Shown one piece after another: positions 50,705 through 53,887 of a stretch of DNA of 64,000 bases. The DNA lies in NCBI GenBank assembly GCA_963740085.1, contig CAVUCU010000007.1:192001-256000 (forward strand). Reading direction: 5' to 3'. Position 1 is the first letter of the stretch. Every line of letters begins with the position of its first letter. The notes under the pieces were generated by a model. The model was not told the DNA's origin, searched no databases, and saw only the letters and a list, made by a program, of their open reading frames with translations. The DNA comes from Nitrospirota bacterium (GTDB lineage Bacteria > Nitrospirota > UBA9217). The position numbers were made by a program, and so were the translations under genes.

Positions 50705-51044
50705 GCATTCCTCATCATGTTCAATTTGAAAACAAACGGATAGCAGGATAGGGATCAGTAAAGAACTTCGCCTATAAAGAACCTGAACCAAAGCACAAGA
50801 GGCCAGTAAGGAGCAAAACGACCATGAAACGGGAAAAGAGGCACTTCATAGCTCGGCTCATTCTGCCCCACGTGTTGGAATAACGCAATGCCAAATCAAA
50901 TTATAGCAAAGTTTTTCAGCTACTTCTGATTATGTCGTATCCACAAAATTATTCCAGTTTAACCGGATAAAGACTCGTCAATTTTGTTATATGCACTCCT
51001 CCAAACCATCAGAAGGCTACACATAACGGGAAGGAGCTGCGTCT

Positions 51045-51434
51045 TTATTTCGCACTCTTATTTCCCTTCAGCTTCTTCGCAGCGTTTTCGGCAACCTGGA
51101 ACTTCACAATCTTTGTGATCAGCTTTAGCGGGATCGGCTGGTCAATGGGGAACTGAACCGACCCCTTCGCATGCTTGTACTTCTTGAAATCATCTTGAAA
51201 TTTGGCAATTCCGCTCGATGTCGGATAGAATCCGATATGGTTTTTGAAAGCGGCGAACGATACAAGATTGCCATTGTAGGAGAAAGATGGTATTTGATAA
51301 CTAATCTTTTCCGTAGCTTCCGGGGCCGCCTTCTTGATGGTGGCCCGTATTTCCGAGAGTATGCGCTTCACATTATCAGGGAATCCTTCAATGTATTGAT
51401 CGATTGCTGTTAGTTCGTTGGTTTTCGCATTCAC
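51045..51434 (-). CDS. DUF1801 (YdhG-like) protein
   Basis: IDQYI, EKISYQIP, FAAFKNHIGFYP, KGSVQFP. Confidence 0.85.
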   Translation of the reverse strand: MNAKTNELTAIDQYIEGFPDNVKRILSEIRATIKKAAPEATEKISYQIPSFSYNGNLVSFAAFKNHIGFYPTSSGIAKFQDDFKKYKHAKGSVQFPIDQPIPLKLITKIVKFQVAENAAKKLKGNKSAK

Positions 51435-51554
51435 TTGGAACTCCTTGTCGTGCCCAATAAGGGGATCACTATTTCCCCTCGATGTAACGACTCCACTATT
51501 CTATTTCAAAAATGCAGTGTTGCAATGAATGGAAGCACTGCAGACTACAGTCAA

Positions 51555-52751
51555 CTATGTGCAGCTCACCGATGATGCCAGATATCTCTGTTTGTGTGAC
51601 AACATGGCAAAAAGCATTCGAGTAAGTTTATGCATTGTTGCCATGACTGCTTTCTTATAAGGCAATCCAGCTTGTTTCTTTTTCTGGTAATACGCTCGGA
51701 ATTTATCGTTATTGAGGATCACATTTACCGTCATGAGCCAAAGAACACGTCGAAGGTGCCTATTTCCTCTCTTTGAGATTCTGCTCTTTCCCTCGTACTT
51801 GCCGGATTGATACACTGTTGGATCAATCCCTGCGTAGGCAATCAAATGTTTGTGCGTCTCGTAGCTCTCGATTCGTCCTAGCTCAGCCAAAAAAGTGGTA
51901 CCGGTTCCGTTACCGATGCCTACCACGGATGTTACAATCTCCAGGTCTTCGACCATCAGAGAGTTGCAGTAGTCCGTGAGCATGACCGTCAACTCATCTC
52001 GACGATCCTCCAGATGGATTAGTGTCGAGATTTTCCCCCGGAGGATAGTCTCTTTGGCTGGACTGACCGTCCCAACCGAGTTCTTGGCCAGTTTGATGAT
52101 ATCCTCCGCCGTAAAGGTTGATATTCTGCTCCCTGAACCTCGTGGCTCCATAGCTTTAGCTATTGCCCGGGGTTTGGCAAGCACAATCAAACGAGCCGAG
52201 GGAAACTTCTTCAGAAATTCAAGCATGATGCCCGAATAGACGCCGCAGAGCCGCTCAAGCTCAGGAAAGGTCGTCTGCAAGACCCGCTTGATCTCGGTCT
52301 TGGTCGCGGAAATCAAATGGCTCAGCGACTCTCTCTCCCGGGCGAGATCTCGCATATCCTGCATATCCTGGCTGACGGACATCTGAGAAATCTTATCCGT
52401 GTGAGCCAGCAGGAACTGGGCGATCGTCAGTGCGTCTTTCTTATCGGTCTTGGTCTTCCGGAGCGTAAGTTTGGCAAAGTTCGAAATCAACAGCGGGTTA
52501 ATGACTACGGCTCGGATGCCCTGAGACGTGAGATAAGAGAATAGATTGATGTGATAGCAGCCCGTGGACTCCATGCCGACGATGACCGTAGAAACATATG
52601 GTTGCTGTGCCATTATCATCTTCAGCAACTTCGAGAACCCATCACTGTCCATGGTACAATCTTGGGCGAAACAGCGTGTCCCTTTGCCGTCAAGGCCAGC
52701 GGCAGAAAAGGACTCTTTGGAAACATCGACGCCAACGGTCAAACTTTCCAT
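51555..52751 (-). CDS. IS110 family DEDD recombinase/transposase
   Basis: VGVDVSK, MESTGCY, KTKTDKKDA, GIG...AGIDP..YQSGK, SKRGNRHLR. Confidence 0.95.
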   Translation of the reverse strand: MESLTVGVDVSKESFSAAGLDGKGTRCFAQDCTMDSDGFSKLLKMIMAQQPYVSTVIVGMESTGCYHINLFSYLTSQGIRAVVINPLLISNFAKLTLRKTKTDKKDALTIAQFLLAHTDKISQMSVSQDMQDMRDLARERESLSHLISATKTEIKRVLQTTFPELERLCGVYSGIMLEFLKKFPSARLIVLAKPRAIAKAMEPRGSGSRISTFTAEDIIKLAKNSVGTVSPAKETILRGKISTLIHLEDRRDELTVMLTDYCNSLMVEDLEIVTSVVGIGNGTGTTFLAELGRIESYETHKHLIAYAGIDPTVYQSGKYEGKSRISKRGNRHLRRVLWLMTVNVILNNDKFRAYYQKKKQAGLPYKKAVMATMHKLTRMLFAMLSHKQRYLASSVSCT

Positions 52752-52790
52752 TGATCCCTCCTCCATGCAAGATTTAGACAGGCAGGAAAC

Positions 52791-52918
52791 GCCTCCCGAC
52801 CAATCCTCCATCGTTACCAGGGCTCTTTGGCCCAATCAACCTATCATGGCTATGGGAGGCAGGGAACAAACTGTACTGAGGGTTCAAGGACCGAGGAAGT
52901 AAACTAAGTTCTCCTGCC
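52791..52918 (+). ncRNA. Putative IS110 bridge RNA (two stem-loops with large internal loops)
   Basis: GCCTCCC..GGGCT/GGCCC..GGGAGGC and GCAGGGAAC..GGTT/GACC..GTTCTCCTGC; loop 2 matches both element ends. Confidence 0.7.
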
Positions 52919-53080
52919 CTTCTATGACATCTATATAGCACAACTAATCGTAGGAGGAAGTACTTTTTCACCAGTCTTGCGCCGGTACAAATTGACAAGT
53001 GACCGCTACCGGCATGAAACCCTTTGGAAACAACTCGGGCGCGGAACAACATCGTTCCGAGCCCGTATTCATTCAGAGTA

Positions 53081-53887
53081 TTATTTTTTTAAGACCTCTG
53101 CAAAGAAGCTGGTCATGTCCTCCCATGACCTCTTGTCAGCGTCGGCATTATACGCCAAAGGAAGGCCGAACTTCTTGCCCAGTTCGTCCGCTTCCGGGTT
53201 CGTGAAGCTGTGGACCGCGCCCGGATAGTTGATAAACTGAAAATCGACCTTGGCATCTCGCATTTCCTGCATGAACGCATCGATCGTCTGCTGCGACGTA
53301 AACTTGTCGTCCTCGCCGTTATATACCCGGATCTTTGCCTTGACCTTTCCCGCCTGGGCGGGTTTAACCGCGACAAGACTGCCGTGGAAGCTTGCCACGG
53401 CCTTGAGGTCTTCGCCCTGCCGCGCCATGTTCAGCACCACACCGCCGCCGAAGCAATAGCCGATTGCCGCGATCCGTTCCGGGTCCACGGTCTTCTGCTT
53501 TTTAAGAAAATTCATGGCCGCCTCGAACCGCTTCTTGGCAACGGGGAAGTTCTTCATGGTCTCGGACGAGAACTTGGCCGCGTCATCGGGATGCGTTGCG
53601 GTCTTCCCTTCGCCATACATGTCCACTGCCAGCGCCGTGTATCCCAGTTCTGCCAGCATCCGCGCGCGTTTTCGGACATACTCGTTCAGTCCCCACCACT
53701 CGTGTACGACGAGAACACCCGGCCGCTTGCCTTTGATGTTCTCATCATAGGCAAGGTAACCCTTCATGGTCACTCCGCCCGCCTTATAGTCAACGGGTTC
53801 ACCCTTGATCTTTGGAGCAGCGAAAACCGCACCGGCAACGATCAATACCATTACAGCGGCAGACAGCCCAACATTGATTTTTTTCAT
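53081..53887 (-). CDS. Dienelactone hydrolase family protein (exported)
   Basis: HEWWG, GYCFGG nucleophile, HSFTNP. Confidence 0.9.
   Translation of the reverse strand: MKKINVGLSAAVMVLIVAGAVFAAPKIKGEPVDYKAGGVTMKGYLAYDENIKGKRPGVLVVHEWWGLNEYVRKRARMLAELGYTALAVDMYGEGKTATHPDDAAKFSSETMKNFPVAKKRFEAAMNFLKKQKTVDPERIAAIGYCFGGGVVLNMARQGEDLKAVASFHGSLVAVKPAQAGKVKAKIRVYNGEDDKFTSQQTIDAFMQEMRDAKVDFQFINYPGAVHSFTNPEADELGKKFGLPLAYNADADKRSWEDMTSFFAEVLKK

Follow-up and report, generated by a model that had tools for sequence, protein, structure and literature searches.

An IS110-group insertion sequence built like IS621, with a predicted bridge RNA on the recombinase strand, in a Nitrospirota bacterium

A recombinase gene of the IS110 family, found in a 64,000-nucleotide stretch of Nitrospirota DNA (the window), is adjoined by a two-module element resembling a bridge RNA. 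The locus raises the question of which strand encodes this RNA, which of its two loops reads which DNA, and where the insertion sequence begins and ends. In an earlier note on this DNA, the element was placed at 51546-52963, with a TA(C) core, a divergent RNA on the plus strand antisense to the recombinase, and a donor-binding loop in the second module (loop 2). The recombinase and the adjoining two-module element were recognized correctly, but the antisense orientation was not upheld. With a probability of about 90%, positions 51549-52960 of the minus strand hold an active-looking IS110-group insertion sequence that is built like IS621 and carries its bridge RNA on the recombinase strand.

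The recombinase gene (51555-52754, minus strand) encodes a protein of 399 amino acids. Its N-terminal DEDD (RuvC-like) domain matches PF01548 over the full profile length (residues 7-164, E 2.6e-37), and its C-terminal Tnp domain matches PF02371 (E 9.5e-25). Among proteins of solved structure, the best relative by sequence is the ISCro4 transposase (PDB 9t56), similar over both domains at E 1.1e-16 and compared here by protein alone. The YQSG motif of the recombinase aligns with YESG of ISCro4, and its serine is probably the catalytic residue.

Identical copies of the element were found in the same genome, one in the window, one at positions 67819-69244 of contig C5, and one at the end of contig C6. 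Since the C6 copy shares its right flank with the C5 copy, at least two independent insertion sites are represented, and the identity of the copies indicates recent transposition. From these two sites the ends are ambiguous: on the plus strand both carry TAC before the element and GTACTT after it, and this ambiguity, inside TAC on the left and GTACTT on the right, accounts for the shared TAC from which the element had been delimited. TAC is indeed present at 51546-51548 and at 52961-52963, and joining the ends there yields the 13-mer that had been described.

The boundaries were settled by homologues, for which 80 loci from metagenome-assembled genomes (MAGs), at 47-83% protein identity, were fetched and oriented with the gene on the plus strand. 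In 79 fetched loci, nhmmer detected DNA-level conservation of the non-coding stretch upstream of the recombinase gene. Across the 80 loci the right end reads ...ATAGTTGACT in nearly all of those with a complete open reading frame, with divergence immediately 3' of it, and the left end starts with CTTCCTCCTAC... Six otherwise identical copies in one MAG (L044-L048 and L069) diverge right after ATAGTTGACT, continuing with TTAGTC, GTTATC, GAAGTC, GTAGTC, GTAGTC and GAAGTC, and in multi-copy families, these six copies included, the left flanks diverge immediately before CTTCCTCC. The first three bases after TTGACT are GAA in 22 of 65 loci, GTA in 17, ACA in 6 and CCT in 4, with other triplets in the rest. 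As this triplet varies, among homologues as well as among identical copies in one genome, it is not a fixed part of the element, and GTA/TAC belongs to the target. On the recombinase strand the element therefore begins with CT-TCCTCC... and closes with ...TTGA-CT, so that CT stands on both sides, and both ends move 3 nt inward, to 51549 instead of 51546 and to 52960 instead of 52963. What had been taken for its terminal TAC is target flank.

So delimited, the insertion sequence (51549-52960, minus strand) measures 1412 bp, including a copy of the CT core at each end. Its right end beyond the stop codon consists of TTGA and the core CT (51549-51554, core at 51549-51550) and is the left-donor sequence read by the donor loop; the end is very short, as had been noted, but amounts to 6 nt rather than 9. 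Its left end (52755-52960, 206 nt, core copy at 52959-52960) holds a putative promoter element, the predicted bridge RNA and a ribosome-binding site. Outside the element lie the right target flank (51543-51548, minus strand), which reads GTAGTC on the recombinase strand and includes the left TAC of the earlier delimitation, and the left target flank (52961-52968, minus strand), which reads AAAAAGTA on the same strand and includes the right TAC.

Candidate empty sites favour these boundaries only slightly. In the same-genus genome G003 (locus L085), TACAGTAATTTT stands where a CT core predicts TACAGTACTTTT, in an intergenic region with indels. Local alignment to this site scored 64 with the CT ends versus 61 with the TAC ends, and a paralogous, uninterrupted copy of the second site (C6:5610-6041) gave 141 versus 134. 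In the other same-genus genomes, matches begin only 60 or more bases into the flank. Among the fetched loci, a 12-mer across the CT joint had one match, in an unrelated coding stretch of L005, and a 14-mer across the TAC joint had none. A sub-clade of homologues (L009, L010, L013, L016, L019, L021 and L027) shows CT at the right junction and not at the left. In the same sub-clade the right flanks are of the CCTCT, CCATT or CCTTT type, TC, CC, TT or TA stands at the core in the left junction and the left guide, and a CAT motif occurs in the flank at a variable distance from the left end.

Both insertions of this genome lie at the edge of a short repeat family whose units contain GTGTTGCAATGAATG or ATGCAACTACAACGAG. 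The family was located at 51480-51545 of the window, at L002:1428-1506 and in genomes G004, G001 and G005 (loci L105-L111 and L114-L116); same-genus genomes hold it in several copies, G004 giving 7 matches. Some IS110 elements target repeated extragenic sequences, and the repeat-edge insertions recall them. Within the repeat unit, a 14-nt inverted repeat, TGCAGTGTTGCAAT / ATGGAAGCACTGCA (window 51513-51542), occupies the flank just beyond the right end. A separate stretch of contig C5 (73500-76170; L112, L117) is very GC-rich and ends in homopolymers of 168 C, 12 T, 56 A and 8 T, after which come directly the last bases of the insertion sequence and the C5 right flank, repeated at 98% identity; the whole resembles an artefact of assembly or masked sequence at another copy.

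Between the start of the gene and the upstream end of the element, two modules were found, each composed of a stem, an internal loop and a hairpin. The strand of the RNA was read from their base pairs, counted over 4 helices with 25 pairs in 65 distinct sequences, after merging of identical rows and removal of those that were truncated, partial or N-containing (L011, L013, L020, L033 and L036). On the recombinase strand, 1491 pairs are Watson-Crick, 79 are G·U, 11 are A·C and 44 are of other kinds; without three pairs that compete for one GCC, G·U still outnumbers A·C by 75 to 7. Where compensatory states are linked by an intermediate, this is G·U on the recombinase strand, as at a pair with GC in 32 sequences, AU in 28 and GU in 5. 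Read on the plus strand, the 79 helix cells turn into A·C mismatches. RNAalifold, run on the 65 distinct sequences, gave a consensus fold of -22.29 kcal/mol with 26 pairs, 11 of them with compensatory changes, on the recombinase strand, compared with -2.46 kcal/mol and 12 pairs, 4 with compensatory changes, on the opposite strand. Single-sequence folds did not surpass shuffles for either strand (z -0.61 and -0.44) and are thus uninformative on this point. The Rfam scan of 51000-53500, at E-values up to 10, returned no family matching the element region, its sole listed hit being an unrelated lncRNA model outside the element.

The polarity of the guides points to the same strand. If the core is CT, the two guides of either loop terminate at it on the recombinase strand, the 5' guide being identical to the left half and the 3' guide complementary to the right half. 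In the passages on IS621 in PMC11208158 and PMC11208160, the bottom strand is paired on the left, by the left target guide (LTG), and the top strand on the right, by the right target guide (RTG); the polarity found here is that of the IS621 scheme and so favours the recombinase strand. The earlier argument that guides end at the core on the plus strand holds only with a misplaced TA core. It had also been noted that G-U pairs in the inner hairpins favour the plus strand, and in the window copy that strand could indeed add one U·G at the base of each hairpin. At these two positions, however, the recombinase strand has C/A in 44 and 53 of the 65 sequences, the alternatives being GA, AA, TA and one CG, with no compensatory exchange of G-C and A-U, so that the extra pairs do not support the strand. 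Taken with the guides, the pair counts suggest that the bridge RNA is transcribed on the recombinase strand.

Its transcription probably starts from a conserved, extended -10-like motif, TGcTATATA (52932-52940, minus strand), which precedes the first stem by 13 nt. Of 66 distinct left ends, 50 have a TATAxx box at 21-22 nt from the core, and in 40 of the 66 TGn stands before it. The distance from the -35-like TTGACT of the right end to the -10 is likewise 21-22 nt, outside the usual spacing of 16-18 nt and too wide for an ordinary -35/-10 pair, so that a promoter assembled across the circle joint would be hypothetical. With its first stem only 13 nt past the motif, the window copy has no 5' stem-loop, and about a dozen homologues are built likewise, whereas in many others (L009, L019, L021 and L037 among them) the gap is 33-46 nt and holds a hairpin. 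This extra hairpin (for instance AAACGGGTTTTACCCGTT) sits at the position of the 5' stem-loop of IS621. The 5' stem-loop has no role in the guides and is left out of the recognition schematic of Hiraizumi et al. (PMC11208158).

The module next to the gene (loop 1; 52791-52860, minus strand) reads as the donor-binding loop. Its helices enclose conserved guide columns (0.35-0.47 bits per column), and its first three bases, GCC at 52858-52860, also form the foot of the target-loop stem. The left donor guide, GUUGAUU (52834-52840), matches the right end GTTGACT with a U·G wobble at the first core base. The pairing of GTTGACT with GTTGATT recurs in 36 loci, and in L060 end and guide change jointly (GTTAACT with GTTAATT). 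The right donor guide, GGAGGA (52804-52809), is complementary to bases +3 to +8 of the left end (TCCTCC). Across 69 loci this guide fits the left end at 5.55 of 6 bases, compared with 4.71±0.08 after permutation, and left end and guide change together in L006 (GCCACC/GGTGGC), L040 (ACCTTC/GAAGGT) and L007 and L017 (CACACC/GGTGTA). As drawn, the UU of the right donor guide opposite the CT core makes no Watson-Crick core pair, and the UU of the left donor guide makes one wobble. The right donor guide of IS621, as described in a passage of PMC11208158, is also discontinuous, with two flipped-out uridines.

The upstream module (loop 2; 52858-52919, minus strand), with an outer stem, an internal loop, an inner hairpin and compensatory changes, reads as the target-binding loop. 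Its 5' side (52896-52907) consists of the left target guide UUAGUUUA (52900-52907), the core CU (52898-52899) and UC (52896-52897), and its 3' side (52869-52878) of the right target guide CAGUAC (52873-52878), the core complement AG (52871-52872) and UU (52869-52870). The guide columns are variable, at 1.38-1.48 bits per column, and track the flanks. The reverse complement of the 3' side agrees with CT plus the right flank at 4.02 of 6 bases over 65 loci, against 2.33±0.13 after permutation, with a maximum of 2.79 in 2000 permutations. In this genome the right flanks are GTAGTC and GTACTC, and the guide specifies GTACTG (4/6 and 5/6). The left guide agrees with the left flank at 2.74 of six bases versus 2.15±0.15 (maximum 2.66 in 2000 permutations), which is weak but above permutation. 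A variable target loop followed by a conserved donor loop is the pattern given for IS110-group bridge RNAs in the relevant passage of PMC11208160, and the contrast in conservation agrees with Durrant et al. Across homologues it is loop 1, and not the proposed loop 2, that tracks the element ends.

The same loop identifies the core. When the 3' side of loop 2 is reverse-complemented, its two leading bases coincide with the two terminal bases of the right end in 64 of 65 loci, which makes the core CT rather than the TA proposed before. CT occurs at each end and within the left target guide, and the right target guide holds its complement. The core covaries: in L007 and L017 the right end is TTGACA and the loop carries TG in place of AG as the core complement. 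L006, the single exception in the 65, likewise has TTGACA as its right end, and its register is unclear.

A mechanism analogous to that of IS621 can be proposed from these assignments. The 206-nt left end would encode a bridge RNA of about 135 nt on the strand of the gene (minus in the window), in which the 5' guide of the target loop ends in the core CU and the 3' guide in AG. The two sides of the donor loop would read the right end (GTTGA-CT) and the left end (CT-TCCTCC), in other words the circle joint formed on excision, which on the recombinase strand would be ...ATAGTTGA-CT-TCCTCCTAC... The complex of recombinase and RNA would pair the target with the circle joint at their common CT, where strands would be exchanged, leaving CT on both sides of the inserted element. 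The recombination chemistry is presumably that of IS621.

On its 5' side the target loop runs past the core into bases that resemble the left end of the element. In an identity matrix, this side aligns with the left junction in one register only. Its last four nucleotides equal bases +1 to +4 of the left end in 81, 91, 93 and 99% of 70 loci, the UC at 52896-52897 corresponding to +3 and +4, for which the 93% and 99% identity compares with about 56% and 79% by permutation. The post-core bases covary with the left end across clades, as CTTC, CTCA, TCAC, CTAC, CAAC, TTCT and TTTC. A tentative, rather doubtful explanation is that these two or more left-end-like nucleotides form a third handshake, on the bottom strand, which would favour pairing with the left insertion junction, a junction that is both the product of insertion and a substrate of excision. 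No description of a 2-nt continuation of the left target guide was found in the available portions of the IS110 bridge-RNA papers. At the positions of the handshake guides of IS621, the UU after the core complement of the target loop could pair with GA of the right end (A-U and G·U), and the GG of the donor loop does not fit the TA of the flanks; the right end is invariant.

The fit of the target loop to its sites leaves room for another explanation, namely that the element is a canonical IS110 whose target loop is drifting or non-functional in this lineage, the two insertions being half-matched or off-target. The left guide is a poor fit to both occupied sites, 7 mismatches separate the window site from the 16-nt ideal target, and the whole genome contains no site with 2 or fewer mismatches to that target, the best having 3 (six sites tie). 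Insertion at half-matched sites has been reported for IS621 (bioRxiv 10.64898/2026.08.31.748434). Nevertheless, transposition has been recent, the right guide fits both sites and the loop structure is intact, which makes a decayed loop unlikely. A functional target loop is preferred, and across the clade natural sites lean on the right guide. The left target guide also resembles the right end of the element itself, ATAGTTGA (51551-51558), at 6 of 8 positions; because of this likeness 13 of 16 positions of the target loop agree with the right junction of the C5 copy, which is among the six best-tied sites. The resemblance may be due to chance, at about 0.4% for one comparison.

A plus-strand transcript could also exist beside a sense bridge RNA, as an antisense regulator of the bridge RNA or of recombinase expression. 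Antisense regulators occur in some other IS families. A sigma-70-like site lies on the plus strand at 52631-52660, inside the 5' part of the recombinase gene, with TCGAGA, an 18-nt spacer and TACAAT with TG before the -10; it aims toward the bridge-RNA region, and the plus strand folds locally. However, one such site on that strand compares with 0.5±0.7 expected, which is chance level, the local folds do not exceed shuffles on either strand, and the consensus fold detects no conserved plus-strand feature. Such a regulator is therefore very improbable.

The divergent plus-strand RNA of the earlier note, with loop 2 as donor loop and a TA(C) core, is the least probable reading of all: the paired matches to a TAC joint, the guides that would end at or near a TA core, the extra U·G pairs of this copy and the weak promoter-like site at 52631-52660 are outweighed by the varying triplet after TTGACT, the variability of a loop 2 that tracks flanks while loop 1 tracks the ends, the A·C mismatches with the poor consensus fold, and the want of compensation at the two hairpin positions, and no antisense bridge RNA is described in the IS110 passages, titles and abstracts consulted.

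The sequence matches from which that reading arose are nevertheless genuine. Both motifs, ACTGTACT (52870-52877) and GAGGAAGTA (52893-52901), are present on the plus strand. Among 3000 dinucleotide-preserving shuffles of 52791-52950, matches to the hypothetical joint of at least 8 nt on one strand together with at least 9 nt on the other, the lengths of the two exact matches, occurred in just 3, and either alone in 248. The pair is non-random. Its members form the opposite sides of the target loop and match the insertion junctions (left, TA-CT-TCCTC; right, A-CT-GTACT); they resembled a single circle joint only because the target has GTA on both sides of CT. That the loops read element junctions was seen correctly, although the homologues do not place a joint at TA(C). 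From ends placed three bases off followed the antisense RNA, the TA core and the misassigned donor loop. A boundary error of 3 nt can flip the assignments of strand, loop and core.

Compared with known systems, the element shares with IS621 of E. coli the DEDD and Tnp domains, a long left end and a short right end, a predicted RNA in the left end on the strand of the gene, a variable target loop followed by a conserved donor loop, and a CT core at both ends. It differs in several respects. The protein similarity is distant (E 7.1e-14) and was aligned only over the C-terminal domain, and the window copy is without the 5' stem-loop. As the right end is just 6 nt, the sequence recognized as donor reaches into the stop codon. 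Opposite the core, the right donor guide carries UU; the target loop, on its 5' side, goes on for 2 nt beyond the core with the same bases as the left end; and the -35-like TTGACT stands 21-22 nt from the -10. The IS1111 group belongs to the same recombinase family and follows the same RNA-guided principle, but in the passages of PMC11208160 that treat it, its seekRNA or bridge RNA lies downstream, in a long right end, and long subterminal inverted repeats are present; here the RNA lies upstream and the right end has 6 nt. The element is accordingly an ordinary member of the IS110 group, and not of IS1111, and it shows those IS621-like features that can be tested.

An antisense, divergent bridge RNA would be a new architecture of RNA-guided recombinases, and the evidence speaks against it. 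If the left-end-like bases past the core do act as a third handshake, it would join the two handshake guides of IS621, which are described as lying 3' of the right guides there, and, together with the weak fit of the left guide, would leave the choice of target here mainly to the right guide. The homologues, which come from Nitrospirota, Thermodesulfovibrionales and Desulfobacterota-type MAGs, form an uncharacterised clade of compact IS110 elements whose marks are a short bridge RNA, a right end of 6 nt and a clear code between right guide and target, and this clade offers a further natural example for catalogues of bridge recombinases.
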